Source of the DNA: a virus
Strand: one strand, 5' to 3'
Length of the DNA: 64,000 bases
IMG/VR virus record: IMGVR_UViG_3300021364_001752
Span: 16,456 to 80,455 of that record
In this document: positions 10,779-53,785 of the stretch, one piece after another
Position numbering within the stretch: the stretch's first letter is position 1
Layout of the letters: every line of letters starts with the position of its first letter
Notes under the pieces: generated by a model
The model's database searches: none
What the model was told of the DNA's origin: nothing
What the model saw: the letters and a program-made list of their open reading frames with translations, nothing else
Program-made: the position numbers and the translations under genes

Positions 10779-11786
10779 TTAAAAAGTTTTACCTATTTTT
10801 TCTTCGTCGTGGTCAGCGCCGAAAAACTCTTTGTAGGTATCAGGATTTATAATGACCTTAAGTTTATCTTCAAGGTTTAATGATTTATACCATTCTTTGA
10901 AATTGTTGCCAAATGTGTCTACGTCATCACCAATTTCAACAGTTGCATTTACCCAGCCAGTGTTTCTTTTCCTGTCCGGATCTACGTAATATTTTACTTC
11001 AGGCCAACGGCTTGCCATATCGTCAAGAAAGTCTTTTTTGTTGATAAGTGCATAAAGTTTTTTTAGCTTTTCAACATCATCGTTTTGATGGAACGCTATA
11101 AGTATACCCTGTAACACTATATCATCTTGTGGATTTTTAATGTATTTAGAAAGTTTTTCTACTCTGTAGTGTGCCAATCTACGTAGTTCAATAGCTGATT
11201 CAATAGATAACTTGCTACGTAGAGCAAAGGTGGTTGCTACAGCGTCAAGTTTATCTTGATCGTCCATTTGCGCTAAAGTCATATCCCAATCTCTGTTGGC
11301 TCGAACTTCCTTATACATCGGAATATTGTAAGCATCGTATCGTTGACTGCCTTGCGATCTTCGGCGTGGAGGAGTTGTAGTAGATCTGCCTTGATCAAAA
11401 CCTGATGCATCTCTATCGCCTCTAGCTCTACGTCTTCCTTTACCAGGATTCATCCATTGATAATGTTGACCAGCAATTGCAACCATACCAGTGACTAGAT
11501 TGCCTAATTTATCTAATAGTTGCTTAGTTTTAGATGAAGGACCAGCTGCCCGTCTTGAACCTCTAGGCGAATCAAATTCATCTCCATATGCTCTTGGTGG
11601 TGCATCAAATTCGTCGCCGTAGTTTGCACCTGGTGGTGCATCAAATTCATCTCCATATGTTGCACCTGGACCTGCTGAAAATTCATCACCGTATGTAGCA
11701 GGTGTTCTTGCTGACATCATACGGTCAAATGCATCTCTCGAGGATGGCATGCGTGGATCTTCACTAAGGATATCAATAATTTTCAT
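10779..11786 (-). CDS. Late protein with capsid-targeting-like leader MKIIDILSE and YGDEF repeats
   Basis: TAAATA and GGAG RBS upstream of ATG 11786; four YGDEF units. Confidence 0.7.
   Translation of the reverse strand: MKIIDILSEDPRMPSSRDAFDRMMSARTPATYGDEFSAGPGATYGDEFDAPPGANYGDEFDAPPRAYGDEFDSPRGSRRAAGPSSKTKQLLDKLGNLVTGMVAIAGQHYQWMNPGKGRRRARGDRDASGFDQGRSTTTPPRRRSQGSQRYDAYNIPMYKEVRANRDWDMTLAQMDDQDKLDAVATTFALRSKLSIESAIELRRLAHYRVEKLSKYIKNPQDDIVLQGILIAFHQNDDVEKLKKLYALINKKDFLDDMASRWPEVKYYVDPDRKRNTGWVNATVEIGDDVDTFGNNFKEWYKSLNLEDKLKVIINPDTYKEFFGADHDEEKIGKTF
11571..11700 (-). repeat. Four tandem coding repeats YGDEF(S/D)(A/S)(G/P)(P/R)
   Basis: TYGDEFSAGPGA TYGDEFDAPPGA NYGDEFDAPPRA YGDEFDSP. Confidence 0.9.
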
Positions 11787-11993
11787 TGTGTTCTCCGTGT
11801 TACAGTATTTACCTTGCCTATCAAAACCATGCATGCCTTTAAATGGGTAATATTTGCAAGAAAACCTATTGCTCCAAGCGAAGGTATATAAACGCATTGT
11901 TTACCATGCCTGCTACACTTTAGCGCAGTTCTACAACTTGACATTGTAAAATTTGTATGCTATATATTAATACTTAGACACACGGAGATTAAT

Positions 11994-12197
11994 ATGAGTG
12001 ATACTGTAAGAGCAGCAGCACAAAAGCAAGCCGAAGAAGCAATGGATGGATTTATCCTATGGAGCAAACGAGTCACACTGTGGAGCGCATTCTTTTTATG
12101 TGTTGTTGTATTTGCTTGTAACTCAGGCGTAGACGGCAGTGGCAGTGGTTATAACGGAGAACAATATTCTCCTAGCAACTTGAATGTTAAAAAATGA
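11994..12197 (+). CDS. aa3-type cytochrome c oxidase subunit IV-like single-TM peptide
   Basis: EAMDGFILWSKRVTLWSAFFLCVVVFACNS resembles the Paracoccus CtaH pattern (GFI-TM-NS); TTGACA-17-TATATA upstream. Confidence 0.5.
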   Translation: MSDTVRAAAQKQAEEAMDGFILWSKRVTLWSAFFLCVVVFACNSGVDGSGSGYNGEQYSPSNLNVKK

Positions 12198-12430
12198 AGT
12201 GGTTAATCGTATTTGCAATGTTGGAAGCAGATCCATTTGCAATAAAAAGTTTACAATTTGACACACAAAACGAATGCAAAGCATATATCAATGATCCTGC
12301 TAACAGCAGCAGACTTGCAATAGAAGTGATTGATGTGGCAGGATTTAACGATACAATATTAAATGTGGCTTGTATGCCCGCAAACAAAATTACGAGGGAG
12401 ATGTTGAATGAAACCGAACAAGAAGTTTGA
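12194..12430 (+). CDS. Small secreted protein with a Cys pair (F.T..EC...VAC)
   Basis: Hydrophobic N-terminus; similar layout to 49235-49429. Confidence 0.6.
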   Translation: MKWLIVFAMLEADPFAIKSLQFDTQNECKAYINDPANSSRLAIEVIDVAGFNDTILNVACMPANKITREMLNETEQEV

Positions 12431-12572
12431 GTTATCAGTAAAAGATTTAGAACTTATCGAGAATGCACTGCACAGACTAGAACCAACTCGAGAAGTTCAG
12501 GAACTTTTAGGACGACTACACAATCAAAAGAATTGGTATCGTCCAAAAGACGCAATCTATGTAGGAGGATAA
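12408..12572 (+). CDS. 54-aa conserved hypothetical protein resembling a Rhodobacteraceae family (not in ORF track)
   Basis: MKPNKKFELSVKDLELIENAL..LLGRLHNQKNWYRPKDAIYVGG; GGGAG RBS. Confidence 0.7.
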   Translation: MKPNKKFELSVKDLELIENALHRLEPTREVQELLGRLHNQKNWYRPKDAIYVGG

Positions 12573-12574
12573 AG

Positions 12575-13009: not shown

Positions 13010-13192
13010 ACACATTTTGCTTTAAAGTGTTGTTTTTAAGCAACACTCACTGGTTTTATAATACTATCCACAGGGTAATATGCTCATAAAACTTACAAAG
13101 CAAAATTAGTGTGTTATAAATAAAGAGTAATTTGAAAGGGCACCTTTTGCGCCCTTTCATTTTGCCTCATAATAAAAAGAAGGAAAAATATT

Positions 13193-14044: not shown

Positions 14045-14067
14045 GCAATAGAAGAAAAACAAGTATC

Positions 14068-14094: not shown

Positions 14095-14135
14095 GTGACT
14101 AAATAATACGGGCATATTACTTTAGGAGGGCAGAA

Positions 14136-18427: not shown

Positions 18428-19564
18428 ATGCGTCTCGAAGAAGACCTTAAACTAGACTACAAGGACGTCCTAATTCGTCCCAAGCGTAGCACTCTCAAAA
18501 GTCGTTCTGAAGTTAGTCTCGAACGTAAAACAAACTTTCGTAACTATGAACCAGACTTTGATATTGGAGACTACCATTACCGTGGTATTCCAATTATGGC
18601 AAGTAATATGGATGGTGTTGGCACATTTGAAATGGCTGACAAACTTGCCGAAGGCGATATATTCACCTGTCTAGTAAAGACCTATAGCGTAGAGGAACTA
18701 GTTGAATATTTCAATGGTCCTATTGAACGCACTGAATGTGTTGCAATGAGTATTGGCACAGGTGATAGTGATTATAATAAACTTATCCAAGTTAAGAAAG
18801 AATGTGATAACAAATTAAAATATGTTTGTATGGACATTGCAAATGGATACAGTGAACATTTTGCTGACCATGTAAGAAAGGTCCGCGAAGATTTTCCTGA
18901 TCTTGTGATTATTGCTGGTAATGTTGTCACTAGAGAAATGACGGAGGAATTGATTCTTGCTGGAGCCGACATTGTTAAAGTGGGCATTGGCCCTGGTAGT
19001 GTTTGCACTACTCGTATTCAAACTGGTGTGGGTTATCCACAACTTTCGGCTGTTATTGAGTGTGCTGATGCTGCTCATGGTCTCGGCGGTCACATTATTG
19101 CTGATGGCGGGTGTTCGACGCCTGGAGATGTCGCAAAAGCCTTTGCCGCAGGAGCCGACTTCGTCATGCTTGGAGGAATGCTTGCAGGACACGATGAAGG
19201 CGGAGGAGAATCCATTTTCAAATATGAAGGAACTGGTGAGTTCTATTTTATGAAAGAGGACGAAATTTACAAGCCGGTTATCAACAGAAAAGAATATCGT
19301 AAGTTTTACGGTATGAGTAGCGAAACAGCTAATGAAAAACATTTTGGCGGACTTAAAGACTATCGTTCGTCGGAAGGTCGCACAGTGCTTGTGCCATACA
19401 GAGGACCTGTAGCTAAAACAGTGCAGGAAATCATGGGTGGTGTGCGTAGCACCTGCACCTATACGGGTGCAAAGAAAATCAAGCAGTTGCCCAAGTGTGC
19501 AACTTTTATACGTTGTTCACAAACACATAATTCAGTGTATGAAGGAAGCACAATTGGTAAATAA
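18428..19564 (+). CDS. guaC: GMP reductase
   Basis: [48 protein letters not shown]. Confidence 0.95.
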
Positions 19565-21641: not shown

Positions 21642-22324
21642 GTGAAGTTTGGAATACACTGATTAAAATTCAAGATAGACTAATTGAACGTTTTGATGAT
21701 ACTGGCAAAGAAATAGAAGAACCAGGAATGAATAGATTCAATCAACCAGGCTGGATTAATAGAGTTTGGAGCAGTGAAGCCTATCGTCGAGCTCACGTAG
21801 ATGTTGTCGATGCAAGAGACACTAAAGGTCTATGGATGATGCATTGTTGTGTGTTTCCACACTTGCACAACGATGGTCCTATCTTTGGATTAGATGTTAT
21901 TGCAGGTAAAAATAAAATTACAGGTTACTTTCATGATTACTCACCGACTAGCAATCCTGCAAATGAAATGATTGAGGCGTTTGGAGATGAAGTTGCAAAA
22001 CTAGAATGGCGCAAACCTCGCGAGCTACCAGATTGGGCCAAAGCAATATTTACAGAACATATGGTAGCAGCAGGAAATGTTAACAGCGAAGAAGAATTAC
22101 AGCAGTTGCTTGATCTTAGTTTTGAAAGCATAGATAACTATCTAGAATACATTAGTGCATACAATAACGTAGCCAACGAGCAAGCAGGTAAAGATGCACA
22201 AAATCGCTATGCTCATTATCAAAAACAAAATCCGCATACGCCACGCACAATGACCAGTTTAGGACTTGATGAAGAAGATGTGCAAGTATTTGTGCAGGAG
22301 TGTCTTTTTCCCGACATTGAATAA
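21638..22324 (+). CDS. Ferredoxin-dependent bilin reductase (PcyA/PcyX-type)
   Basis: RRAHVD, MMHCCVFP, PIFGLD, RELPDWAKAIF, QKQNPHTPRTM. Confidence 0.88.
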   Translation: MSEVWNTLIKIQDRLIERFDDTGKEIEEPGMNRFNQPGWINRVWSSEAYRRAHVDVVDARDTKGLWMMHCCVFPHLHNDGPIFGLDVIAGKNKITGYFHDYSPTSNPANEMIEAFGDEVAKLEWRKPRELPDWAKAIFTEHMVAAGNVNSEEELQQLLDLSFESIDNYLEYISAYNNVANEQAGKDAQNRYAHYQKQNPHTPRTMTSLGLDEEDVQVFVQECLFPDIE

Positions 22325-23349
22325 TGCCACAATGCAAAGCTCTAACAAACCAACTTCATATTAATGTAGACGGGGAATATAAGCCCTGTTGTGCCTATAG
22401 TGGTGATACAGGTTACAAGGTAGCTAACACCGATCATAAAGATTTTTTGTCCAGCCCGTTGATGCAAACCATTAAGCAAGAAATGGAACAAGGATGGCAT
22501 GACGGGTGTCTTGGGTGCAAACACGCAGAAGAAAGTGGACAAATGAGTGCTCGCAATGCATTTAATATGTGGTGCAAACAGCAACCTGGTGTGTTAGAAT
22601 ATCTTGATATAAGTTTAAGCAATCAATGCAATCTAGCCTGTAGAATGTGCAATGAGATAAGCAGTAGTCGTTGGGAAAAATTATTAGACTGTAAAACTGC
22701 TCCTAAAAATAATTTAGATAGCATAATAAAAGACCTAGATTTAAATCTATTAAATCACATAAAGTATCAAGGCGGCGAGCCTTTTATAACTCCTGAAATA
22801 ATAGATGTGTTAAAATTAGTTGCTTCGCAAAAAACTTTCTTTACATTCAGCACCAACTTGACGCTGTATCCTAAAAAGTATGAAAGCCTACTAATGCAAG
22901 CCAAAGGAATATATGCAAACTTTAGTTTGGACGGATACAAGCATGTAAACAATTATATAAGAAGTTGTGCTTGGGATACTATAGATTCTAATCTAGATCG
23001 TTGGCTTAAATTTTTTAAAAAATACAATATCAAAGGTATGCAAAATGTTAGCACAGTGGTTCAAGCTCTAAATTTTCACGACCTTCAAAATATAAAAAAT
23101 TATGTAAACGGAAAAAATATAATTTGGATAGCACAAGAAATAGTAGATCCTGATTATATGAGTATAAATGCTTTACCTGAATCTTATATAGAGCAAGTTA
23201 TAGACGATGTAAATTCAAAATTTTTACACTCATACAAATTTGATCAACAACTTTTTAAAGATTTTAAACAAAACATTTTGGCACAAGATAAGTTGTTAGG
23301 CACAACATTGCAAACAGTAAATCCGTTGCTGTATTCTTATTTAGAATAA
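22324..23349 (+). CDS. Radical SAM protein with N-terminal SPASM/twitch domain
   Basis: PCC..C..C, CNLACRMC, GGEPF, TN. Confidence 0.88.
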   Translation: MPQCKALTNQLHINVDGEYKPCCAYSGDTGYKVANTDHKDFLSSPLMQTIKQEMEQGWHDGCLGCKHAEESGQMSARNAFNMWCKQQPGVLEYLDISLSNQCNLACRMCNEISSSRWEKLLDCKTAPKNNLDSIIKDLDLNLLNHIKYQGGEPFITPEIIDVLKLVASQKTFFTFSTNLTLYPKKYESLLMQAKGIYANFSLDGYKHVNNYIRSCAWDTIDSNLDRWLKFFKKYNIKGMQNVSTVVQALNFHDLQNIKNYVNGKNIIWIAQEIVDPDYMSINALPESYIEQVIDDVNSKFLHSYKFDQQLFKDFKQNILAQDKLLGTTLQTVNPLLYSYLE

Positions 23350-23356
23350 ATACTGT

Positions 23357-24139
23357 ATGCGTTATAAAGAAGTTATACCAGAACAAGATAGAATCGTGTC
23401 TGTCGGCGGCGACAAATTGCTATATCATTCAACCAGCTATGCGCATGCCGCTGCCATACTAAGCGATGATGGATTCAAGCCCGGAGTATCAGATGGCGGG
23501 CAACCTGTAAAAAAGGACAGTTTTATCAGTTTTAGTAGAACACCCGGAAACACATATGCAGGGTCATCTATGACTGTTACATTTGAAATTGATGAAGAAA
23601 AATTACAAAGACATTTGAATAGCCAGGCAAGAAAATTTGACATGGAGCCGCATAGATTTGCAAGATTTTATCACGGAGAGCGTGAAACAAGATTGAACCT
23701 AGGCGGTGCTGACAAAATTACAAACTTAAAAAAATTTGTAAGAGCAATTCATGTATGGCCTGTCAAAGATATACAAGATGTAGCATCATGGGAAATTGAA
23801 GCAGACAAAATGCCTGCTATGGTAGGAGGTTTAGACAGTGATCCTAATCGTGTTGATCCAGCTGATCCTAATGCTAGAACACCCAAAGGCGAAGCACAAT
23901 ATAGAAAAATAGTTACAGGCCATGCAAAAACAGAAGCAGAACCGTTGGATGTGATGCTTAAACTTGCAAAACAAAAAGGCATACGCACTCATATCTATTT
24001 AGACAGAACAGACTTTTTGTCTAAGCGCATAGACCGTAGTGCAAGGGTAACAAATAGGCCTGCAATTTTTCCAATTGTTAAGGCATTACTACAGCGCAAA
24101 TTTGTAAAAGCAGCAAGGTTAATAGGCGGAGATAAATAG
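23357..24139 (+). CDS. Putative ADP-ribosyltransferase-like virion protein
   Basis: LYHSTS, ISFSR, ERE (H-S-E pattern); leader MRYKEVIPE; late promoter. Confidence 0.45.
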   Translation: MRYKEVIPEQDRIVSVGGDKLLYHSTSYAHAAAILSDDGFKPGVSDGGQPVKKDSFISFSRTPGNTYAGSSMTVTFEIDEEKLQRHLNSQARKFDMEPHRFARFYHGERETRLNLGGADKITNLKKFVRAIHVWPVKDIQDVASWEIEADKMPAMVGGLDSDPNRVDPADPNARTPKGEAQYRKIVTGHAKTEAEPLDVMLKLAKQKGIRTHIYLDRTDFLSKRIDRSARVTNRPAIFPIVKALLQRKFVKAARLIGGDK

Positions 24140-24142
24140 TAT

Positions 24143-25240
24143 ATGCGTTACAATGATTTTAAATTAGTTGAATATGTAGATCCAGAAGAAGCCAAGCGTG
24201 AAATCTTGACAAAAGTTCAACAACTAGATGTAAATACAGAAGAAAACCAAGCTCTGCTTGACAGAGTTTACAGCATTGTGCATCAGACAGGTGTTACTGA
24301 TAGACTTATGCCCAGCCTAGAAGGTGCTCTTAAAGACGAGTATAACGATGCTGCAATCAAAATGATAGCAGAAAAAATTGTAATAGCAAATAGTTTAAAT
24401 TTAGCGCAAAAGAAAAAATTCTTACAAAACTTAGAAAATAACAAGTGTGTAAATCACAAGTTATTTCTTCAAAATGGCCATTTCAATTTAGACGAATTGT
24501 TCTACAACGACCCTATTAACAAACAGATGTTTTTAGAATTTATAAACTTTGGTGCTGGCCAAAAACGTGCAGGTAAAGGTGAACATGCATTTGCTATTCT
24601 AAGTCAGAATATTACACAAAAAGGCTTAGGCGATCTTGATGTTGATGGTGCACCAGTTGAGTTAAAAGTTGCAACTACAAAAGGTAGCGGTAGACTAGGC
24701 GAAGGCGGAGTTAACCCAGAAAAAGCAAGACAAATAATTGCACAATTTGAAGAACTAACGGATGCACTAAATGGATACTCCAAAGGTGGACACCAAGGTG
24801 ATAGTGAATTTATTAAAAGTCGCGGCACTCCAGACAAACCACAAAAAAGTGTAAACCTAGTAGACTTTACTCGTATATGTAATGCATTGAGATTAGACGA
24901 GCAGCGCAGACAAGCCATAGGCAAAGCAGTATTCAATGATAGGTTTGGAAAGTTTGGCGATACTATTACAGCAGTATTCCAAAAACCTGGTGCAGCACCA
25001 ACAGCAGTGCTTGATGCTTATATTGAAGCAAACTTTGAATTCTACAAAGCAAGTGAAGGTGGCGGCGCATGGCAAACATTAACTAGTATTGCATTAGGAT
25101 CAAACAGTGGTGTGACAGCTGATACTGGCAAAGCATTAGCTCAACTTTTTGCAGATGGCGCTCTTGCTAGCAGTATTCCTGCTGTAATTCCTACACAAGA
25201 TCCTGAAGTTTTCTATCAAGTTAACCCAGCCGTAAAGTAA
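24143..25240 (+). CDS. Putative PD-(D/E)xK nuclease-fold virion protein
   Basis: GKGE..GDLDVDGAPVELK; leader MRYNDFKLVE; late promoter. Confidence 0.5.
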   Translation: MRYNDFKLVEYVDPEEAKREILTKVQQLDVNTEENQALLDRVYSIVHQTGVTDRLMPSLEGALKDEYNDAAIKMIAEKIVIANSLNLAQKKKFLQNLENNKCVNHKLFLQNGHFNLDELFYNDPINKQMFLEFINFGAGQKRAGKGEHAFAILSQNITQKGLGDLDVDGAPVELKVATTKGSGRLGEGGVNPEKARQIIAQFEELTDALNGYSKGGHQGDSEFIKSRGTPDKPQKSVNLVDFTRICNALRLDEQRRQAIGKAVFNDRFGKFGDTITAVFQKPGAAPTAVLDAYIEANFEFYKASEGGGAWQTLTSIALGSNSGVTADTGKALAQLFADGALASSIPAVIPTQDPEVFYQVNPAVK

Positions 25241-25287: not shown

Positions 25288-25770
25288 ATGAAAAGAATAG
25301 CGAACATCGCCATGTTGCTGCCTATGTTTGTGTCACTGTCAGTGTCACATGCAGGAGCAGATCTAGTTCATCAGTTTAAAAATCCCAGTTTTAGTGGTAT
25401 TGGGTATAGCACCCATGTTTTGAGTTTAGAACAATTACAATTTAACAGAACAGAGGACATTGCAAAGGCAGCTGAAGCAGAAGAGCGTAGGCTAGAGCGC
25501 GAGCTAGAAAATTCAACATTAAACAAATTTATTAAAAATGTAGAGTCTCGCATATATGCAACATTGAGCAAGCAAATGGTAGACGCTATGTTTGAATCAT
25601 GCACTGATGACACTGGGCTTACCTGTCCTACAAGCGGAACTACTGAAATTGAGGATAGCACCATTACTTGGAGCAAAGATACAACCACAGGAGAAATTAC
25701 AATTGTTGTTGATGGTCCTGACGGTTATACTGAAATCAGCATACCGGGATCAGGGGAGTTTGCCTTTTGA
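25288..25770 (+). CDS. csgF: Curli assembly protein CsgF-like
   Basis: Signal peptide, LVHQFKNPSFSG, F...VESRIYATLS. Confidence 0.88.
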   Translation: MKRIANIAMLLPMFVSLSVSHAGADLVHQFKNPSFSGIGYSTHVLSLEQLQFNRTEDIAKAAEAEERRLERELENSTLNKFIKNVESRIYATLSKQMVDAMFESCTDDTGLTCPTSGTTEIEDSTITWSKDTTTGEITIVVDGPDGYTEISIPGSGEFAF

Positions 25771-26546
25771 AGTATTTAATGATACTTGGAATTTTATTTT
25801 TAACAGGTTGCACGGTGCCACAAAGCGTTCAAGAAGCAATGGATAGCGAACCTGAAGTCCAAGTAAATCCTATGCAAGCTGAGTTGAGAGCACTACCTGG
25901 ACCAGATGGCGATCCAGTGCCAATAGGTGTTTACAGTTTTTCAGACAAAACTGGACAGCGTAAGCCTGCTGACAGTGTAGCAAATCTAAGTTCAGCTGTT
26001 ACACAAGGCGCAGAAGTATGGCTTATTGATGCACTACTGGAGGCAGGCGAAGGCGAATGGTTTAATGTTGTCGAGCGTGTTAGTTTAGACAACATTATAA
26101 GAGAAAGACAACTTATACGAAGCACAAGGGAAAATTATGATGATCCAAGTCCTTTAGAGCCAATGCTCTTCGCAGGAGTGGTTTTAGAAGGCGGAATTAT
26201 AGGATATGACAGCAACCAGACCACAGGAGGGTATGGTGCAAGATATTTTGGAATAGGCGCTGCTACTGAATACAGAGTAGATACTGTGACAGTTGGCATG
26301 CGTTTAGTGAGCGTTGGCACTGGAAGAGTGTTAATGAGCGTGGCAGCAGAGAAGACTATAGCTAGCCATAGGAGTGGGGCAGATGTTTTTAAGTTCTTAG
26401 ACATGAGCACCAAGGCACTGGAAATAGAGAGCGGATACAGTGTCAATGAGCCTACCAATTATGCTGTGAGGGCAGCAATAGAGGCAGGAGTAATAGAACT
26501 AATTTATGAAGGAAATCGAAAAGGTTTTTGGACATTTAAACAATGA
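25767..26546 (+). CDS. csgG: Curli secretion channel CsgG lipoprotein
   Basis: Lipobox FLTGC, VYSFSDKTGQRKP, SSAVTQG, VVER..ERQLIR, GGIIGYD. Confidence 0.95.
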   Translation: MKYLMILGILFLTGCTVPQSVQEAMDSEPEVQVNPMQAELRALPGPDGDPVPIGVYSFSDKTGQRKPADSVANLSSAVTQGAEVWLIDALLEAGEGEWFNVVERVSLDNIIRERQLIRSTRENYDDPSPLEPMLFAGVVLEGGIIGYDSNQTTGGYGARYFGIGAATEYRVDTVTVGMRLVSVGTGRVLMSVAAEKTIASHRSGADVFKFLDMSTKALEIESGYSVNEPTNYAVRAAIEAGVIELIYEGNRKGFWTFKQ

Positions 26547-26558
26547 GGGCAACGATAA

Positions 26559-27266
26559 ATGAAAAAAATAATATATGCCGCCTTATTTGGTCTTATTAGT
26601 TCGGTTGCATTAGCAAATGAAATTTATATCAGTCAAATAGGTGACACATTAGACTTAGACATTACCCAAAGCGGTGATAACAACAAAATAGGAACCAGTT
26701 TAGCCGATATGGTTATTCAAGGTGACGACATGACATTCAGTATTACACAAACTGGAGATAGCAATACGATTGATGCAACTATAAAAGGAGCCAATTATAC
26801 AGGCACATGGGATTTTACAGGAAGCAATAACGATGTTGATCTTTTATGTAGTTCAACTACCGCAGGCAATTGTGATACTGTAACCCTTAACATAGATACC
26901 ACTGGCGGATACAACAATTTCACATTTGCTATTGGCGAAACCGCTTCGGCTGACAGCAGTATTATTAACTTTACTGTGACAGGGGATAGTCAAGTATTTG
27001 ATGTTACTGTAGATGGCGAAGCAATTGATGTAACAGTTGTAATTGATGATGGCACAAGCGGTCTTACAAACACAGCGGGCAACACTAACAATTTAACAAT
27101 TGATACAAGTGGCAATGGCGGAACCAACGGTAACACAGTTGACTTGAACATTACAGGTTCGGGTGGGACATACAACGTTACACAAACAGGAACGCTAATT
27201 GATCAGACCATTGATGCAACATTCAGTGGCGATGACGCAACAGTTGATATCACACAGAGCGACTGA
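26559..27266 (+). CDS. Curlin-repeat protein
   Basis: Signal peptide, ANEIYISQIG, repeated I.Q.G..N. Confidence 0.8.
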   Translation: MKKIIYAALFGLISSVALANEIYISQIGDTLDLDITQSGDNNKIGTSLADMVIQGDDMTFSITQTGDSNTIDATIKGANYTGTWDFTGSNNDVDLLCSSTTAGNCDTVTLNIDTTGGYNNFTFAIGETASADSSIINFTVTGDSQVFDVTVDGEAIDVTVVIDDGTSGLTNTAGNTNNLTIDTSGNGGTNGNTVDLNITGSGGTYNVTQTGTLIDQTIDATFSGDDATVDITQSD

Positions 27267-28357
27267 TGTGGAGATTGTTATTTGTGCTGCTGTTTTTTGC
27301 CAGCAGTGCTATAGCTCAAATAGGCGAAATCGCTGACATAGAAGGCAGCGGCATTGTTAAGCGTGACAGTGAAAAGATAAAAGGTGAACTGGGCATTGGT
27401 GTTCAAATGGCCGACAAAATTATTACGGCCAAAGGACGTATGCAATTACACTTCTCTGACGAAACTCGTGTAGACGTAACTGAGCATAGTGCAATGGTGA
27501 TCGATGAGTTTATATATGATCCTGCACAAGGCACAGGTGCATTAAAAATGCGAGCTACATTGGGTGCAGTAAGATATGCCAGCGGACAGATAGCCAAAAC
27601 CAGCAGACAAAGAGTTAGTATCAGAACACCTAGTGCAACTATCGGTGTTCGCGGCACAGACTTTATAATGATTGTTGATGAAATAGGCGGCAGCATGGTT
27701 ACCCTCTTACCTAGCTGTGATGACAGAGGCTTTTGTATGGTTGGTGAAATTACTGTAGAGAGCGATGCAGGTATTGTAATAATGAATCAAGCCTATCAAA
27801 CAACAATAGTTAAACACAGTGCTGCTCCTCCTGCGCCACCTAAGATATTAGACTTACCAGACGATCTTTTACGTGCAATGTTGATAGTAAGAAAGACTTC
27901 TCCTTACGATGAAATTAATGAAGAGGCTGTAGCTGCAACAGATATTTTAAAATTTGATTTTCTAGCATTTGATGGTTTAGATGAGGATTTACTTAATGCA
28001 GATGAGCTATGGGTAACTGATTTAGACAATGAATCTTATTTAAACCAAATGTTTGTAGATCAGTTAACCCAGGCACTGAAAGAATTGTTCGCATTACTTA
28101 CAAGTCTATTGGATTTACAAGCAGAAGAATTTATGCGTATACAAGTATTTGGATACGATCCCGAAACTGGTATAACCTTAGAAGACCAGCCACCAAATTA
28201 TGTATTCACACGAACAGAAAATACACACCATGTGAGATTAACATTGAATGAAAATTATGGTTATAATATTGATTTAATTCAAAACGATTTTTCAATATTT
28301 GATTACAGTATAGGAGTAGGAGCAAATGACATTTACATCAATCAGCAAGAAAATTAA
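27266..28357 (+). CDS. FecR-domain periplasmic protein
   Basis: D.I.T..G, F.D.T, IRTPSATIGVRGTDF. Confidence 0.88.
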   Translation: MWRLLFVLLFFASSAIAQIGEIADIEGSGIVKRDSEKIKGELGIGVQMADKIITAKGRMQLHFSDETRVDVTEHSAMVIDEFIYDPAQGTGALKMRATLGAVRYASGQIAKTSRQRVSIRTPSATIGVRGTDFIMIVDEIGGSMVTLLPSCDDRGFCMVGEITVESDAGIVIMNQAYQTTIVKHSAAPPAPPKILDLPDDLLRAMLIVRKTSPYDEINEEAVAATDILKFDFLAFDGLDEDLLNADELWVTDLDNESYLNQMFVDQLTQALKELFALLTSLLDLQAEEFMRIQVFGYDPETGITLEDQPPNYVFTRTENTHHVRLTLNENYGYNIDLIQNDFSIFDYSIGVGANDIYINQQEN

Positions 28358-29018
28358 ATTGCTGGTATTATTTGCAGCATTTCCTGCCCATGCTAACGAA
28401 ATTTATATTACGCAAACCGGTGATAGCCTTGCCTTGCGTGTTGAGCAGCGAAGTGCAGACAATTATGTCAATCTAAGCAGCACTGGTAATACAAACGACA
28501 TAAGCATTACACAAGGCATGCATTACGATGGCTCTACATATTGGGTAGACACAGACGAGACTGGTGGACACGAAGCATACTGGACCATTACTGGTGCAAA
28601 CAATACCGTGTGGAGTAGTCAAACAGATGTCAACAGAGGTGGTGGTGGAGGATCTCCGCACCATTTGGCAAACATAGTAAATGGAGATTACAATACAATT
28701 GCACATACACAAATGGGAAAAGCAGGACACGATGGCTTTGTAGAAATACAAGGTGACAACAATGATGTTACACTTTATCAGAGAGGTAATGGTGGTGCAA
28801 AGTGGGCAGATGTTGTGCTCAACGGTGATGGACATAGTGTAGACGTTAACCAAAGAGGAAGCCAAAGTGCTAATGCTACTGTAGATTTAACCAATAGTGG
28901 CGGTGCATATGATTTTATACTCACACAGAATGTTACTACTAGTGCTGATACATATAGTATAACTGGCATTTGCACAAACAGTGCAGGTTGCGCATTGTCT
29001 GTTGATCGCAACAACTAA
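28326..29018 (+). CDS. Second curlin-repeat protein
   Basis: ANEIYITQTG, Q.G repeats, terminal Cys pair. Confidence 0.75.
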   Translation: MTFTSISKKIKLLVLFAAFPAHANEIYITQTGDSLALRVEQRSADNYVNLSSTGNTNDISITQGMHYDGSTYWVDTDETGGHEAYWTITGANNTVWSSQTDVNRGGGGGSPHHLANIVNGDYNTIAHTQMGKAGHDGFVEIQGDNNDVTLYQRGNGGAKWADVVLNGDGHSVDVNQRGSQSANATVDLTNSGGAYDFILTQNVTTSADTYSITGICTNSAGCALSVDRNN

Positions 29019-29037
29019 ATATATGTGAGGGCATACA

Positions 29038-29178
29038 ATGGGCGAAAGTATCATAGCATTCTTTGTAGCAGGATTTTTCACCGCATTTGGCTGGTGGGCT
29101 GCCGGCAAGGTTACCACACAGATTGACTCTCACATAGAGGAGCAGCACAATGGATCTAATTTGGGCACTGGCGATTAG
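29038..29178 (+). CDS. Small single-TM protein (46 aa; not in ORF track)
   Basis: MGESIIAFFVAGFFTAFGWWAAG..; TAAATA and GAGGG RBS. Confidence 0.55.
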   Translation: MGESIIAFFVAGFFTAFGWWAAGKVTTQIDSHIEEQHNGSNLGTGD

Positions 29179-29497
29179 CACACATCTAGGAATGGAAGGC
29201 GATTACAACAGCATTCATCCACACGTAAGGATAGAAGATGGAGGAGCAATAGCAGGAGCCTATTACAACAGCATGGACCGCATAAGTTTATATGCGGGGC
29301 ACAGATTAGAATCGGGTAACGCAGGCTTAGAGTTTGCGTTGGTCACAGGATACGATGAATGGATGCCCGTAGCACCATACATTAGAGGCACATATGACTT
29401 AGGCAATGTTAGAGCGTTTGCATCACCAACAGGGGAAGTATGGAACGGCGAAACCAATATAGGCGTGGTTTTTGGAATTGAATACACGTTTAAATAG
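29150..29497 (+). CDS. Small outer-membrane beta-barrel-like protein
   Basis: GAYYNSMDRISLYAG, LVTGY, terminal GIEYTFK. Confidence 0.6.
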   Translation: MDLIWALAISTHLGMEGDYNSIHPHVRIEDGGAIAGAYYNSMDRISLYAGHRLESGNAGLEFALVTGYDEWMPVAPYIRGTYDLGNVRAFASPTGEVWNGETNIGVVFGIEYTFK

Positions 29498-29563
29498 TAT
29501 GTGGACCGCGGCGTGAGGGCGCAACCGGCATAACAAGAAGTCTTCAATCAAGGAGAACATTAA

Positions 29564-31063
29564 ATGAGGGCAATCAAAAATACGTTAGGCGGAGCCATTG
29601 TCGCCTCTTTATTATCAACAACAGCAATGGCACACACAAATTCAGTTGGTTATGTTGGTGACGGTAACGGAAACATTACTGTATGGTATGGTTCATGGCA
29701 CGACGGCACAACATTTAACGAAGCAGAACTAAAAGTATTAGATTCTAATGATGCTAAAATTACACAAACACAGTTTAACTTACTGTCGCAGGATTCACCA
29801 GCAGGACTTATCTCAGGTGTAAACTACTTTGGTAGTGATGGTATACAGTTGATTGATTATGATGTAAACACGGGTGGTGGCGAGTCATACACTTGGCAAG
29901 GTGCAACATTTACACTGGCACCAGGTGACTACACATTTGTATACATTCCATTACAGGATGCAGAAAGCACACTATGTCCGGCTGGCACATCAGGATGCGG
30001 TCCAACACAAGACTGGGTTCCAATGGACGAAATTATTCGCAGTTTAAGTATTACACTTACACAAAATGATATCGATGGTGATGCTAACGCAAACGGAATC
30101 CTTGATACAACTGAAGTTGCTGTAGGTGATGCGGCGGCCGCGGCAAGTGGTCCAACAGTAGTAAGCCAGGGTTCAAGCACAGTAATTGGATATGTTGCGG
30201 CAAGCGGCGGCGTTATACAGATTGTTCAAAGAACAAGCACAACAACTATGTGGAATAATATGAGTGACGGATCTATAGATGGACTACACACAATGGCTCC
30301 TGTTACACTCGATCCGTTCGAAGGACGCATTGATCAGGTGGATCAAATGTTAAATTTAAATTTACATAGAAGCACACCTATTGCAGATGGTATTCAAAGC
30401 GGACGTATCAGTCACGAAATGGGCGACGGATATGACGCAGATACAAGAACCTATAGTTTAGGACACACTGTATTCACAGAAGAAGGTATGAGTATACAAG
30501 GTGGAATAACAAAAGGATCAACTACCTTTACAGGAAGCGATAGCACAGGATCAATGGAATCTATGATGTTGCAAGGAAGAGTAGGTAAAGCCTTAGATGA
30601 TAGAGATATTACAATAGGCGTAGGTGCGCATGTGCATAACAGCGATATTGAATATTCTAGAACAATAGGAGATTTCAGTGCTGCTGGTTCAACCAGTGCA
30701 AGTGACATCGGAGCTAACATTACTTTTGAAAAATCAACTGGTAACGTTCGTCCTTTTGTAGGATATACAATTGGAAAGCAGTCAACAGATGCTTATGATG
30801 AGACAGGAGATGCACAAGTAGCTCTATCACGTGATGCAGCAGAAGAGACTTACAACTTTGCAACAATTGGTATCAACATTGATGCAGGAATGTTTACAGC
30901 AAATTTTGCTAGAGATTTCGACGATGTAGGAACTACCAGAATAGGGCTGGGCATTGATAAGCACATAAATGATAGAATATCTATAGGTGCAAGTGCTAAT
31001 CGTTCTATGAGTGGTGACAACACAAGCACATACCTAAGTGCAGGATTTAAAATTAAATTTTAA
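29564..31063 (+). CDS. Autotransporter-like protein with C-terminal beta-barrel
   Basis: Signal peptide, passenger domain, amphipathic strands, C-terminal AGFKIKF. Confidence 0.75.
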   Translation: MRAIKNTLGGAIVASLLSTTAMAHTNSVGYVGDGNGNITVWYGSWHDGTTFNEAELKVLDSNDAKITQTQFNLLSQDSPAGLISGVNYFGSDGIQLIDYDVNTGGGESYTWQGATFTLAPGDYTFVYIPLQDAESTLCPAGTSGCGPTQDWVPMDEIIRSLSITLTQNDIDGDANANGILDTTEVAVGDAAAAASGPTVVSQGSSTVIGYVAASGGVIQIVQRTSTTTMWNNMSDGSIDGLHTMAPVTLDPFEGRIDQVDQMLNLNLHRSTPIADGIQSGRISHEMGDGYDADTRTYSLGHTVFTEEGMSIQGGITKGSTTFTGSDSTGSMESMMLQGRVGKALDDRDITIGVGAHVHNSDIEYSRTIGDFSAAGSTSASDIGANITFEKSTGNVRPFVGYTIGKQSTDAYDETGDAQVALSRDAAEETYNFATIGINIDAGMFTANFARDFDDVGTTRIGLGIDKHINDRISIGASANRSMSGDNTSTYLSAGFKIKF

Positions 31064-31073
31064 GTGATAGTTT

Positions 31074-31110
31074 TATTGCCCTCATTGGATAAATACCTTT
31101 GAGGGCAATA
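31074..31110 (+). promoter_or_regulatory. RBS-sequestering hairpin with a late promoter in its loop
   Basis: TATTGCCCTCA..TAAATA..TGAGGGCAATA, perfect 11 bp. Confidence 0.75.
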
Positions 31111-31505
31111 TGAGAATAATAATTTTATTATGTATACTGGCGGGACCAGTATGGGCTGACTCCAATCACGATAGCAAACTCTGCTTGGAGCGGTATGGGT
31201 ATTCTGTAGAAAATTTTGATAGGTTTGACTGGAACAAAGCAGCAGCATGTGCAAGTAAACTAAGACAAAAACAAAATGCAGAAGAATTAGCAGAACTAAG
31301 AGACTTTCTCAAACATAATCCAAGATACAGAGTGCCAGGACAGAGTTTAAATCGTTGCTGGGGCAAGCCACGTGAAATGCCGTTTGAAAGTGTAACAGCA
31401 AGTGCCAGTGCAGATGGCAGTTGGCATGTGGGTGTAAATTATAAAGATAAACTGCCAGCAGGATGCTATGAAAATGCTCCGTGGGATAATAGGGACTCAA
31501 AATAA
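31110..31505 (+). CDS. Secreted Cys-containing hypothetical protein
   Basis: Signal peptide; four Cys in mature part. Confidence 0.65.
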   Translation: MRIIILLCILAGPVWADSNHDSKLCLERYGYSVENFDRFDWNKAAACASKLRQKQNAEELAELRDFLKHNPRYRVPGQSLNRCWGKPREMPFESVTASASADGSWHVGVNYKDKLPAGCYENAPWDNRDSK

Positions 31506-31663
31506 TGTGGAAAACATCATTAGCAATACTTTTAATCATACTAGGCGTAACTTGGTGGAGGTATGGAGAGCAAAGTCAAACATATTGGCAGAACGTAGGA
31601 CCTTCTTGGGACAAGATGTTAAACCCGAATAAATACACGGAGCAACACAATGAAGGACAATAA
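31505..31663 (+). CDS. Small membrane protein (52 aa; not in ORF track)
   Basis: MWKTSLAILLIILGVTWW..; TAATG coupling. Confidence 0.55.
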   Translation: MWKTSLAILLIILGVTWWRYGEQSQTYWQNVGPSWDKMLNPNKYTEQHNEGQ

Positions 31664-31665
31664 TA

Positions 31666-49681: not shown

Positions 49682-49725
49682 CTATGCTTATCAAAGCGAT
49701 AAATACATCAAAGCAGGAGAAATAG

Positions 49726-50493
49726 ATGATTCTTAACGAAGGCGGCAATGTATTTGATGGCACTAGTGATTTTGATCATGCAGATATAGACAACATACTC
49801 AAAACAGTAAATGCAAGTTTAGATGGCACAGGCATAGAAGCAATTCCAGTTGGCAGTGCTGCTACACCTACTCCTGGAAAAATCAGTGGTGACTTAGATG
49901 TTATTGTTGACGCTGGTGCTGTAATGAATTACTTTGATGTTAAGGATCCTAAGTCTGCTAGAAAAATGCTAAACGATTTTATTGCCAACAAAGGTTTTGA
50001 AACAGCACAGACTGGCACTAATGTCCACGTAAGAGCACCCAATAATGATAGCAGCGCACAAGTTGATATTATGGTTGTAGCTAATGCACCTACCATTGCT
50101 AAATTCCATACGCATGATATTCCGGTAGATTCGCCATATAAAGGTATACACAAGCAACTTGCAATTAGTAAACTTGCAAAGCAGCAAGGTAAATTGTGGA
50201 GTGCATGGAAAGGCTTGTATACTAGAAACGACAAAGGCAAAGCAGGCGATTTTATTTCCGACGATTTAAATGTTATTGCACAGTCATTGCTAGGCGATGG
50301 TGCAAGGGCAGAAGACCTAGGAAGTTTAGAAAGCATAGTTGCAAAACTGCCGAAAGACCAAGGCGATGCATTAATGGCAGAACTTTCGCAAGATCCTAAC
50401 TGGACAAAAGTAAAAAAAGAAACAGTTTTAACATTAGCCGATAAGAATCATCAACGAATTGTTGAATTAATGCAAAGGATGGCAGACAGATGA
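49726..50493 (+). CDS. Pol-beta-superfamily nucleotidyltransferase
   Basis: VGS..SGDLDVIVD, QVDIM; leader MILNE; TAAATA upstream. Confidence 0.75.
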   Translation: MILNEGGNVFDGTSDFDHADIDNILKTVNASLDGTGIEAIPVGSAATPTPGKISGDLDVIVDAGAVMNYFDVKDPKSARKMLNDFIANKGFETAQTGTNVHVRAPNNDSSAQVDIMVVANAPTIAKFHTHDIPVDSPYKGIHKQLAISKLAKQQGKLWSAWKGLYTRNDKGKAGDFISDDLNVIAQSLLGDGARAEDLGSLESIVAKLPKDQGDALMAELSQDPNWTKVKKETVLTLADKNHQRIVELMQRMADR

Positions 50494-51149
50494 AGATAAG
50501 AGATTTAATTGAGGACGATCCAGGCAGCAGCGATTCATTAGGACTTGGCGGTCTTTTTACTGGTGTGTTGCGTGGAGCAGAAAGAACTCAACAAGCAGCA
50601 TCTGGTTCTGTTGATACACACGGTAGCACAGGTTCAGTAGGTGGTTCTGATAGTTTAGACGATATAGAGTTTGCTCAAGGACAGTCGCAAGGTAGAGTAA
50701 GAATGCAAAACAGTGGAGCAACTCGTAACAAGCCACTGAATCAAAGATTAATGAATATACTGGTTGCAGCAGCAGAAGAAGCACAAGTTGATGTTGTTGT
50801 ATTCAGCGGTGGACAAGATGCAAGAGGACAAGGCACTAGACGCACTGGCTCAGTCAGACACGACAACGGTAATGCAGCAGATGTTTGGATTTACTCAGGC
50901 GGAAGCAGATTGAGCACAGCTAGAGAAAATCCTATTGTTGCTAACTTTATTAGAGCAGCCGTTGCAGCAGGCGCAAAAGGCATAGGCGCAGGCCCAGGTT
51001 ATATGGACAGCGTTGGAATACACGTTGACATAGTTGGAGACTCAGCAGGCGGATCAGTAACATGGGGTAGAGGTTCAAGATCAGCAACAACTCCTGGCTA
51101 CGTTACAGCAGCATATCAAGCTGGGCAATCTGGAACATCAATGGCATGA
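50490..51149 (+). CDS. LAS/peptidase-M15-like peptidoglycan peptidase
   Basis: SG..S.RH..GNAADV, GIG...IHVD; leader MKIRDLIE. Confidence 0.65.
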   Translation: MKIRDLIEDDPGSSDSLGLGGLFTGVLRGAERTQQAASGSVDTHGSTGSVGGSDSLDDIEFAQGQSQGRVRMQNSGATRNKPLNQRLMNILVAAAEEAQVDVVVFSGGQDARGQGTRRTGSVRHDNGNAADVWIYSGGSRLSTARENPIVANFIRAAVAAGAKGIGAGPGYMDSVGIHVDIVGDSAGGSVTWGRGSRSATTPGYVTAAYQAGQSGTSMA

Positions 51150-52276
51150 GATATCAAGAGATCATAGAAGCAAAGCAGCTAGGAAGAGCTTTCAATCATT
51201 TGGAAGATCTTGTGTTCTTTTACGGCAGCCAAGGCACACTTGAAGCCTTAGAACATTTACGTGATTTTGCAAGTGAACAGGGCGGCAACAGTATAAGAAT
51301 GAAATGGGATGGCAACCCACAAATCTATTGGGGCAGAGCAGAAGCAGGAGGTCCATTAGTATTAGCAGGACACAATGCTTGGGCCAGAGGAGCAGCAGCC
51401 ACATCACCAGAACAAGTTCAAGACTTTATTGCGAACCAAAGTGGTAATCCAAAAACGGACGAAGAGCGTGAAGCACGTAATGAATTTGCTGCAAAGTTTG
51501 CAAGTTTATACAGTGAGTTTGATGCTGCAACACCAAAAGATTTTGTAGGCTATGTTTATGCGGACGGGCTGTTTTTAGAACAACCTGCGCAGCAAAACGG
51601 AGTTTACACTTTCTGTCCTAATCCTAGGTCACAAACTTGCTATCATGTAAAAGCTGACAGCGATTTAGGTAAACGTATCCAAGCTGCTAATATTATGGTA
51701 GTAGGACATGCGTTCTTCCCTGAGTTTGGAATGCCTGACAGCGCACAACAACCAATGCAAGACTTTAGCATGTTTGATGGCAACCGAAACGTTATTGTTT
51801 TAGGTCCAGTGTATAACACAAAACCAGTTGAAATTGACACAGGCGCAATAGACATTGTTGAAGCATTTGTAAAAAAACATGCAGGACACATTGATCAGTT
51901 TTTAGAAAGTGTTAAAGGTTTAAGCGACTTAAAAAATATTATATACACCTATGTTAATCAAACAGCAAAGGCAAAGCAACTAGATAATCTAAGCGACAAG
52001 CATTTTTTCCAATGGTTGGCAACAAGTAAGGTAAGCCAAGGTAAGCAAGACAAAATTGCTGAATTAGAGCAAACTTTTAATGGAGCTCTAGCTGCAATAT
52101 TTGAATTGGTAAAAATGATACAGCGCATGAAGGATCAAGTTATTGATCAAATTGAAGGCGAACAAGGCGACATATGGGATACAAATGGAGAAGGTAGGGT
52201 AAGATATGCAGATCCATCTACCAAACAATTTGGCAATGTAAAACTTGTTCCAAGAAAGAGATGGACACCGTCATGA
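51146..52276 (+). CDS. DUF6267-like protein with ligase-type KxDG motif
   Basis: HLEDL, KWDG.P, EG.V, VKLVPR; leader MRYQEIIE. Confidence 0.65.
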   Translation: MRYQEIIEAKQLGRAFNHLEDLVFFYGSQGTLEALEHLRDFASEQGGNSIRMKWDGNPQIYWGRAEAGGPLVLAGHNAWARGAAATSPEQVQDFIANQSGNPKTDEEREARNEFAAKFASLYSEFDAATPKDFVGYVYADGLFLEQPAQQNGVYTFCPNPRSQTCYHVKADSDLGKRIQAANIMVVGHAFFPEFGMPDSAQQPMQDFSMFDGNRNVIVLGPVYNTKPVEIDTGAIDIVEAFVKKHAGHIDQFLESVKGLSDLKNIIYTYVNQTAKAKQLDNLSDKHFFQWLATSKVSQGKQDKIAELEQTFNGALAAIFELVKMIQRMKDQVIDQIEGEQGDIWDTNGEGRVRYADPSTKQFGNVKLVPRKRWTPS

Positions 52277-53190
52277 GATTTAAAGAAATAATGGAAGATA
52301 TACCTGTGCCAACACCAAGACCAGATGCGCCGCCACCTGTGCCACCATCAAGAGGTGACGCACCGCCACGTGTTCAACAGTCTGGCGATATCACTGTTAG
52401 TGGACCAGATGGCTCAGATTTTGAAACACAAACCACAGATTCAGGATTGCAAGAAGGACCTCCATATCATACAGAGGAAGTAGATATGGTAAAGGCAGTG
52501 CAAACCAAATTGGAACAGTTAGGTTACAGTGTAGGTCTTACAGGAATTGACGGGAAATATGGTTATAGAACGGCTGCCGCAATAGCAGCCTTCAAGCAGG
52601 ATAACAACATTGCAGGCGCCGGCAGTTCAATAAGTAGAGACGAAATTGCTAAATTGAACAATGCAACGCCTGTGGAAAATCCTACACCTGTAAGGACAAC
52701 CGATCCAACTAGACGCCCAGTTACACCTGTTACTGATTTAACACCAGATGAGAATTTGTTTAATGGTCCATCTAGTAATAGAGCAGCAGTTAGATTTAAC
52801 AATCCAGGTGCTATGTATCCTGCAAGCTGGCAAAGTAGATTCGGCGGCACAGACACTAGAGAACGCATAGGCGGCGGACATAGAATTGCAATGTTTCCTG
52901 ACAAAGTTTCTGGAGCAGCAGCTCTTTTCGCCCTGTTGGATGGCAGATTATACAGAGACAAATCAGTTGCAAGTGCATTGAGAACATGGACTGGAGGTAA
53001 TAGCACATCTTCCTATGTAACATGGCTGCAAGGTAGAGGTATAGACACTGACGAAACAGTAGCAAATTTCCTTGCAAATGAAGATGCGGCTGTTGCTTTA
53101 GGATCAGCAATGGCTAGATGGGAAACAGGACACGTCTATCCTATGTCGGAAGACGATTGGCGTCAAGCATACAGTAGATCAGGAGTATAA
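52273..53190 (+). CDS. Peptidoglycan-binding domain plus lysozyme-like (NNPG) domain protein
   Basis: VQ..L..LGY..IDGKYG.RTAAAIAAFK; RFNNPG, MARWETG; leader MRFKEIME. Confidence 0.7.
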   Translation: MRFKEIMEDIPVPTPRPDAPPPVPPSRGDAPPRVQQSGDITVSGPDGSDFETQTTDSGLQEGPPYHTEEVDMVKAVQTKLEQLGYSVGLTGIDGKYGYRTAAAIAAFKQDNNIAGAGSSISRDEIAKLNNATPVENPTPVRTTDPTRRPVTPVTDLTPDENLFNGPSSNRAAVRFNNPGAMYPASWQSRFGGTDTRERIGGGHRIAMFPDKVSGAAALFALLDGRLYRDKSVASALRTWTGGNSTSSYVTWLQGRGIDTDETVANFLANEDAAVALGSAMARWETGHVYPMSEDDWRQAYSRSGV

Positions 53191-53191
53191 G

Positions 53192-53785
53192 ATGAAAATT
53201 AGAGAATTACTAGAAGCACCAGGCGAAACTGTAGGACTAATATTTGGACGTTTTAATCCTCCACACAAAGGACACAAAGCAGCATGGGAAATGGCAAGCC
53301 AGGAAAATCATTGGTATGTAGGAACAAACATGGCAACTATAGGTCCTAAAGATCCACTGCCTTTCCAAGTAAAAATCAAAGCCATGGAAACAATATGGCC
53401 ACAGGTAAGGGACCATATTATTGCAAGTCAAAGTTGGTTAACATTAGCCAGTGAGCTATACGCAAAACATCCTAATGCTACACTGGTATTATTCACTGAC
53501 GAAGCATGGGTTCCTAAAACCATTCAGCAATATAACGGACAAGAAGGTCCGCATGGTGTTTATAATTTTAAAAATATTGAGACAAAACCCACACCAAGAT
53601 TGAGCAGTGCAACAGCATTACGTCAAGCTGTTTTGGACAACAATCCAGAAGAGTTTAGCGATGCAGCTGGTGTTCCTGCTGATACTGTAATTGACGTTCC
53701 TGGAGAAAATATTACCTTCTTTGATATGGTAGCTAAGTATATAGAACCACATCGAGAGAAACTTCTTGCAAAATCTAAAAAATAA
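53192..53785 (+). CDS. HxGH cytidylyl/nucleotidyltransferase
   Basis: FGRFNPPHKGH, KDPL, SSATALR; leader MKIRELLE. Confidence 0.85.
   Translation: MKIRELLEAPGETVGLIFGRFNPPHKGHKAAWEMASQENHWYVGTNMATIGPKDPLPFQVKIKAMETIWPQVRDHIIASQSWLTLASELYAKHPNATLVLFTDEAWVPKTIQQYNGQEGPHGVYNFKNIETKPTPRLSSATALRQAVLDNNPEEFSDAAGVPADTVIDVPGENITFFDMVAKYIEPHREKLLAKSKK

Follow-up and report, generated by a model that had tools for sequence, protein, structure and literature searches.

A short N-terminal leader resembling T4-type capsid targeting sequences on otherwise unrelated phage proteins of an uncultured marine lineage

We analysed a 64,000-nucleotide stretch of viral DNA (hereafter the window), bases 16456-80455 of the 80,455 bp IMG/VR contig IMGVR_UViG_3300021364_001752, in which eight otherwise unrelated proteins begin with a similar short peptide. 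By CheckV, the contig represents ~25% of a genome. Its window carries genes for ribonucleotide reductase, tail-fibre proteins, a curli/FecR/cyclase module and radical S-adenosylmethionine (SAM) enzymes, together with six tRNAs and a transfer-messenger RNA (tmRNA). An initial annotation had singled out the shared N-terminus, which we call the leader, and read it as a capsid-packaging 'zip code'. Six-frame translation recovered every one of the eight peptides. MKIIDILSE begins at 11786 on the minus strand; the others lie on the plus strand, with MRYKEVIPE at 23357, MRYNDFKLVE at 24143, MILNE at 49726, MKIRDLIE at 50490, MRYQEIIE at 51146, MRFKEIME at 52273 and MKIRELLE at 53192. We refer to genes by these start positions. 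A ninth leader, MRFEEIME, opens a gene upstream of the window (contig 5771-6598) whose 275-residue product is very acidic and Pro/Asp/Glu-rich, with PEPEPD-type repeats.

Two of these starts, 52273 and 11786, are not the first ATG of their longest open reading frame (ORF). We consider 52273 the likelier true start because its ATG overlaps the upstream stop as ATGA, and 11786 the likelier one because GGAG stands 9 nucleotides (nt) upstream and TAAATA lies at 11806-11811. The motif of the initial annotation, written as a regular expression (regex), fits 6 of 129 first-start N-termini, or 6-8 when alternative starts are counted, whereas N-terminal composition predicts 0.016; shuffling gave an expectation of 0.027, with no more than 2 fits in any of 5000 shuffles. 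Among 581 internal methionines it fits two, which are the alternative starts at 11786 and 52273. Matches anywhere number 12 in 25,862 residues, and the remaining four correspond to about the chance rate. A motif scan of the contig's ORFs, metabolic genes included, found no other ORF with the leader (reductase, radical SAM, oxygenase and curli genes all lack it), in agreement with the initial annotation. The nine proteins are alike only at residues 1-11, with nothing further detected by all-versus-all BLASTP; paralogy was considered and ruled out, as similarity stops at the leader. The view that one leader sits on eight unrelated proteins thus holds for its enrichment and for the unrelatedness of its carriers. 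MILNE is its weak member, a doubtful leader because it spans five residues and some orthologues of its protein begin directly at MGGNVF.

The leader is an amphipathic peptide of 8-10 residues with the form M-(K/R)-(Y/F/I)-x-(D/E)-(hydrophobic)-(hydrophobic)-(x)-E. All nine examples end in I/L-x-E (IPE, LVE, LNE, LIE, IIE, IME, LLE, LSE and IME), and in the three longer leaders the isoleucine or leucine at P3 was not imposed by the regex. Pro/Gly-rich linkers come after several of them, and in the AlphaFold models of the 23357 and 51146 proteins the leader falls outside the fold. These acidic leaders of 8-10 residues, followed by polar or Pro-rich sequence, bear no Sec or Tat signature. A signal of either kind was tried as an explanation and rejected, there being no hydrophobic core of 10 or more residues and no twin-arginine motif.

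The initial annotation had placed each tagged gene behind a TAAATA promoter or in an operon behind one, and this arrangement was borne out. On the plus strand, ATAAATA, which resembles a late promoter, lies directly upstream of 23357 (23346..23352) and of 24143 (24132..24138), in both cases 4 nt before the ATG. A further plus-strand copy (49699..49705) stands ahead of a five-gene operon, where it is followed by AGGAG and lies 20 nt before the ATG at 49726. On the minus strand, the TAAATA at 11806..11811 is 19 nt upstream of the 11786 start. Downstream of 49726, the genes from 50490 to 53192 are joined by ATGA overlaps or a 1-nt gap and are thus translationally coupled. Across the contig, ATAAATA occurs 16 times on the plus strand and once on the minus strand; the bare hexamer TAAATA shows no enrichment on the contig. 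At 3173-3186, 23346-23359 and 24132-24145, ATAAATA stands 4 nt before an ATG with no Shine-Dalgarno sequence, and the late mRNAs at 3184, 23357 and 24143 may be leaderless.

These initiation contexts bear on one explanation of the shared start, namely that it is a feature of translation or mRNA, such as a 5' codon pattern of leaderless or coupled late mRNAs, and not a protein signal. Several tagged genes do begin 4 nt after ATAAATA or overlap an upstream stop, and bacterial genes often have an A-rich second codon (Lys, Arg-AGA). However, the same residues are encoded by different codons (CGT/AGA for Arg; ATT/ATC/ATA for Ile; GAA/GAG), and amino-acid conservation through different codons argues for selection on the peptide, not the RNA. 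The motif also occurs in three kinds of initiation context, and orthologues retain the terminal (I/L/V)xE despite changes in length. Moreover, the context ATAAATACTGTATG is identical at 23357 and at the tail-fibre gene 3184, yet the latter begins MAITKR, without a leader. We regard a purely mRNA-level origin as extremely improbable.

The tagged genes encode a varied set of proteins. The minus-strand gene (10779..11786, 335 residues; leader at 11760-11786) specifies YGDEFDAPP-type repeats after its leader, then a basic stretch and a C-terminal domain without a family match. All others are on the plus strand. The 260-residue product of 23357..24139 (leader at 23357-23383) has no Pfam match but a predicted ADP-ribosyltransferase (ART)-like fold of the Tpt1/DarT clade: its AF2 model (mean predicted local distance difference test score, pLDDT, 69; residues 1-18 disordered) aligned by VIA-align with Tpt1 at Z 9.4 (root-mean-square deviation 3.2, 113 aligned residues) and with DarT at Z 8.6, 8.6, 7.7 and 7.3, with many ART toxins in lower rows at Z 4-5. 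Its homologues also carry leaders (MNIAEIVTE, MKIIEILVE, MRSKEFVFE). The gene at 22324-23349, just before it, matches radical SAM PHROGs. The 365-residue product of 24143..25240 (leader at 24143-24172) belongs to a virus-only family with no Pfam match; in a protein atlas it met only virus-only unnamed clusters, along with a weak restriction-endonuclease lead at 0.80.

The five-gene operon opens with 49726..50493 (255 residues), whose short N-terminus ends L-N-E and whose orthologues begin MILLEGGNVF or directly MGGNVF. It continues with 50490..51149 (219 residues; leader at 50490-50513, then a Gly/Ser-rich linker; ATGA overlap upstream), possibly a LAS-type peptidase judging from an HxxxxxxD ... 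HVD pattern. The third gene, 51146..52276 (376 residues; leader at 51146-51169), encodes a protein of Pfam family DUF6267 in which K53-W-D-G56 is invariant in 45 sequences. Its AlphaFold model (pLDDT 88, residues 1-13 disordered) returned nothing significant with Foldseek, and its top VIA-align rows are RNA/DNA ligases at Z 5-6 over ~170-185 aligned residues, a level that chance folds can also reach, so that its ligase likeness is suggestive only. Next, 52273..53190 (305 residues; leader at 52273-52296; ATGA overlap) encodes a protein in which a Pro-rich linker leads to a PG_binding_1 domain, followed by a C-terminal domain. The last, 53192..53785 (197 residues; leader at 53192-53215), encodes an HxGH nucleotidyltransferase of 'cytidyltransferase' type. 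Among the tagged proteins, predicted mature N-termini include AKQLGR, on the DUF6267 protein, and APGETVGLIFGR. Neither Pfam nor PHROGs assigned a family to five of the eight proteins, and PDB sequences searched with phmmer yielded no match to 49726, 50490 or 51146. As predicted, then, the set comprises an ADP-ribosyltransferase-fold protein, the ligase-like DUF6267 protein, an HxGH nucleotidyltransferase, a peptidoglycan-binding protein, a candidate LAS peptidase and three family-less proteins. Directly 3' of the operon, 53801-60891 holds five or six tandem genes of ~400 residues.

We compared the leaders of orthologues across 80 IMG/VR loci. DUF6267 orthologues display 47 distinct N-termini that vary in length and sequence (for example MRYQELIE, MRYSDFKLVE, MRFQEFKNINE, MRLRQLFKEAE and MKIAEIITE); nearly all begin M-(R/K)-(aromatic/aliphatic)-x-(E/D), and in most the leader closes with (I/L/V)-x-E, the invariant AKQLGR following at once. 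Orthologues of the nucleotidyltransferase show 26 distinct N-termini, with M(R/K/L)LR(Q/E)LFE preceding ETVGLIFGRFNP. Homologues of 23357 show the same behaviour. An address tag meant for removal would be expected to have just this appearance, a variable extension ahead of a constant junction. Other homologues of 53192 begin MKKFSEIIE (gp18 of Methylophilales phage Melnitz), MKSFSQFLTE (P-SSM2 gp194), MKSFFQFLSE (S-SM2) and MKNFSSFLTE (S-CREM2 ORF154), and the homologue in jumbo enterobacterial phage GAP32 has no leader. Genes adjoining Melnitz gp18 begin MKKFSELTSE, MQGFKTFLSE and MKNFKNHIAE. The strict regex finds no match in Melnitz, which has the T4-like 10-residue form; by their sequences, the Melnitz and cyanophage homologues (MKKFSEIIE, MKSFSQFLTE) bridge the short and the T4-type leaders.

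Around the operon, the 80 loci hold 171 leader-bearing ORFs in ~32 clusters, a rough number that depends on a 60%-coverage rule and counts all ORFs of at least 80 residues in any frame; single-linkage clustering collapsed them into one big cluster. This abundance indicates a plastic locus, like the internal-protein loci of T4. It also fits the idea that cassette exchange produced the shared N-terminus incidentally, with 5' ends serving as recombination linkers in a hyperplastic locus and the peptide itself functionless. Different families share a leader in relatives, as with MRLRQLFKEAE on DUF6267 and MRLRQLFE on the nucleotidyltransferase. Within the genome, though, leaders differ in DNA, which leaves little homology for recombination, and the tagged genes sit at four separate loci (contig 5771 and window 11786, 23357 and 49726). 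A functionless linker therefore seems so improbable that we give it next to no weight, and cassette exchange may coexist with a targeting function instead of opposing it.

By protein similarity, the closest isolates to the window phage are Melnitz, whose host is OM43, and Pelagibacter phage HTVC008M. In searches of phage isolates, it was the cyclase and the nucleotidyltransferase alone that led to relatives: tblastn with the DUF6267 protein gave no match, and when two stretches of the window were compared with 50,697 phage records by megablast, none matched. In IMG/VR, 214 loci encode DUF6267 relatives. The longest related contigs span 152-176 kb and are 42-49% complete by CheckV, which, with 25% at 80 kb, suggests a genome of ~330-360 kb for the lineage. 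By comparison, the genomes of Melnitz (141 kb) and HTVC008M (147 kb) are far smaller. Two further observations concern Melnitz. A permuted tmRNA (window 8968-9430; ARAGORN; tag peptide ANDNFAPSEFALAA) has a counterpart in an SsrA annotated at a comparable place there, and the CsgF/CsgG curli-secretion, curlin-repeat, FecR and adenylate/guanylate cyclase genes at 25288-33714 are collinear with Melnitz genes 99-104 at 43-54% identity.

Melnitz is listed under Kyanoviridae and has a T4-type head module consisting of portal, prohead core protease, prohead core protein and Gp23. In three of five long contigs related to the window's (G002, G003 and G004), Peptidase_S77 occurs together with the orthologous operon, and in G004 Pfam identifies Portal_T4, Peptidase_S77 (161717-162340) and Gp23 side by side. 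Between portal and protease, where T4 has its core proteins gp67/gp68, lies a small acidic protein (L094:19686-19934 in G004; G002:C1:161825-162061). It begins MLLRELFYF in G004, behind TATAAATA, and MILRELFYF in G002, behind TAATAAATA; the scaffold begins MLDALK(T/Q)LFE in relatives. In sequence, these core-protein and scaffold starts resemble the same genomes' cargo leaders, M[RKL]LR[QE]LFE. In G004, Melnitz and S-CREM2, the mature capsid protein is immediately preceded by L-S-E or L-T-E, the last residues of its propeptide, as would suit a protease with T4-like specificity. A complex prediction that paired the G004 scaffold with residues 1-60 of the nucleotidyltransferase from the same contig scored 0.00 and weighs neither way.

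In T4, internal proteins enter the scaffolding core by way of a capsid targeting sequence (CTS), which the gp21 protease later cuts off (PMC3012670, PMC5694885); the site that gp21 prefers is I/L-x-E (PMC12991175). T4 propeptides are 10-20 residues long, except that of Alt, which has only six and is cut at ITE-6 (PMC5694885). We found MKTYQEFIAE at the starts of ipII and ipIII in the T4 genome (NC_000866). Written as a degenerate DNA pattern, M-K-x-(F/Y)-x-x-(I/F/L)-x-x-E has only three matches in its 168.9 kb, namely ipII, ipIII and gp61.1, and a reversed control pattern has none. IPI was considered as a further carrier of the identical leader and dropped, as the pattern search matched only those three. 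Gene 61.1 (18966-19130), adjoining the primase gene, encodes a 54-residue hypothetical protein that begins MKTFKEFIKE.

Cyanophage S-CREM2 (OR473000, Kyanoviridae) offers a view of such leaders on virion proteins, as mass spectrometry (MS) of its particles detected 52 of its 219 proteins (PMC10665884, Table 3). We applied a T4-type regex to every start codon of ORFs of at least 40 residues in all six frames of the 175 kb genome. It returned four start sites, all of them annotated starts and all belonging to virion-detected proteins (hypergeometric P = 0.003): ORF6, a SAM hydrolase (MKDFDSFLEE); ORF13, a hypothetical protein (MKDLHSFLTE); ORF14, an APH-like kinase ((M)KRFDAFLTE); and ORF154, the cytidylyltransferase homologous to window 53192. 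Allowing Gln at position 2 adds ORF136 (MQTFSMFFSE), likewise virion-detected, and gives P = 6.5e-4. ORF12 ('Cas9-like', also in virions) has ...LRFASFMAE at residues 17-25, with a CTG codon before it. The S-CREM2 authors report that kinases and cytidyltransferases are frequent in cyanophage virions (PMC10665884); their paper was not listed by a full-text search for the phrase 'capsid targeting sequence'.

Together, these data favour reading the shared N-terminus as a T4-type CTS, to which we assign a probability of roughly three in four. The tagged enzymes are probably packed into the capsid of the window phage and injected with its DNA. Under this scheme, the cargo genes would be transcribed late from the ATAAATA promoters, and the leader would let each new protein co-assemble with the prohead scaffolding core. 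A T4 gp21-type prohead protease would then cut after the terminal Glu of (I/L)-x-E, and the mature enzyme would stay in the head until it exits with the DNA at infection. The packaging role proposed in the initial annotation thus gains support from T4 likeness, the (I/L)xE ending, late motifs, orthologue leaders, the protease of relatives and S-CREM2 virion MS, but what it describes is a known T4 principle and not a new mechanism.

Several points count against this reading. No head module and no protease were found on the window's contig (~25% of a genome), so that the leader and the protease are known to occur together from relatives at 68-70% identity. Late expression of the tagged genes is suggested by a promoter motif. 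One DUF6267 orthologue (MTSQSVTTYKRLGR) and several 49726 orthologues have no leader. The T4 match to gp61.1, not a known head protein, means that the leader rule is not perfectly specific. The T4 regex and the S-CREM2 regex were written after sequences had been seen (some, for S-CREM2), and the leaders of S-CREM2 are of the 10-residue T4 type, whereas those here are of an 8-residue type.

The (I/L)xE ending and the disorder of the leader would suit any cleavable propeptide. The leader could accordingly be a removable propeptide only, one that keeps enzymes inactive or marks them for the prohead protease, with no capsid address and with proteins that act late in the cytoplasm. In the models, so short a peptide would hardly seem able to cover an active site. 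The activity of T4 gp21 is confined to the assembled prohead, and cleavage therefore implies earlier packaging. S-CREM2 proteins with a T4-type leader are, furthermore, physically present in virions (PMC10665884). We find the propeptide-only explanation very unlikely.

Alternatively, the leader might direct proteins elsewhere than to the head interior: to the cell envelope, to the tail or baseplate, or to a chaperone that they have in common. Two tagged proteins look peptidoglycan-related, and proteins of this sort are tail-associated in other phages; the whole-virion MS of S-CREM2 (PMC10665884) does not separate head from tail. Yet the leader is not a Sec/Tat signal, its likeness is to head-core proteins and to T4 IPII and IPIII, and tail-fibre and baseplate genes behind the same promoter do without it. 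Another destination is, in our estimation, quite improbable.

What the cargo would do on arrival is a separate matter. The tagged set could be a pre-packaged kit for nucleic-acid repair or counter-defence, delivered before phage gene expression and directed at host defences that cleave tRNA or deplete NAD. This idea draws on the best fold rows of DUF6267, which include a tRNA ligase adenylyltransferase domain, on the Tpt1/DarT-like fold of 23357 and on the HxGH (NMNAT-like) nucleotidyltransferase; it also counts a candidate, possibly Pol-beta-type, nucleotidyltransferase. The cargo operon is encoded right after the phage tRNA array. We offer this function tentatively and think it unlikely in this specific form.

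If the CTS reading is correct, sequence alone is enough to tell which proteins uncultured marine T4-like phages inject. The injected set of this lineage would consist of sizeable enzymes and cell-wall-binding proteins, including an ADP-ribosyltransferase-fold protein, a ligase-like protein and nucleotidyltransferases. T4, by contrast, packs small DNA-binding inhibitors. For the kinases, SAM hydrolase and cytidyltransferases in cyanophage virions, a T4-type leader on exactly these proteins offers a route into particles that the published proteomics left unexplained, and provides a testable rule for Kyanoviridae and their relatives. The initial annotation's proposal that the leader could predict cargo genome-wide needs a qualification: a single fixed regex will miss cargo, as leaders drift between relatives (MRYQELIE, MRYSDFKLVE, MRLRQLFE, MKSFSQFLTE). 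Because of this drift between lineages, cargo prediction needs lineage-specific profiles.

Known systems share parts of this arrangement. The ejection proteins of phiKZ and SPN3US are head-internal enzymes cut after Glu by a gp21-related protease, and their propeptides are thought to target the prohead (PMC5694885); those propeptides, however, have 80-130 residues and another cleavage motif, as opposed to 8-10 residues with I/L at P3 here. T4 Alt, an ADP-ribosyltransferase packaged in the head and injected (PMC5694885), is an enzyme cargo with a very short propeptide that ends I-x-E. The 23357 protein is likewise predicted to have an ADP-ribosyltransferase fold, but its best folds are Tpt1 and DarT, of the nucleic-acid-directed clade and not of Alt's R-S-E clade, and it has no sequence similarity to Alt. 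The virion enzymes of S-CREM2 have a nucleotidyltransferase family in common with the window (T4-GC 190) and CTS-like leaders ending L-x-E, although the window phage belongs to a different, larger-genome lineage.

For the leader itself, the likeness is to T4 IPII and IPIII. There, too, an N-terminal leader of ~10 residues sits on otherwise unrelated late proteins and combines a basic, an aromatic and an acidic residue, two hydrophobics and a terminal Glu; MRYQEIIE, MRFKEIME and MKIRELLE follow the MKTYQEFIAE pattern minus residues 3 and 9. The lineage of the window phage also has a T4-type portal, protease, scaffold and Gp23. Its leader differs in being two residues shorter and more variable within one genome, and the cargo differs as well: small basic DNA-associated proteins in T4, enzymes of 200-380 residues in the window. 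The CTS principle is already known from T4 (Mullaney & Black 1996); what is new is the predicted cargo set, in a shortened-leader form, in an uncultured marine lineage.

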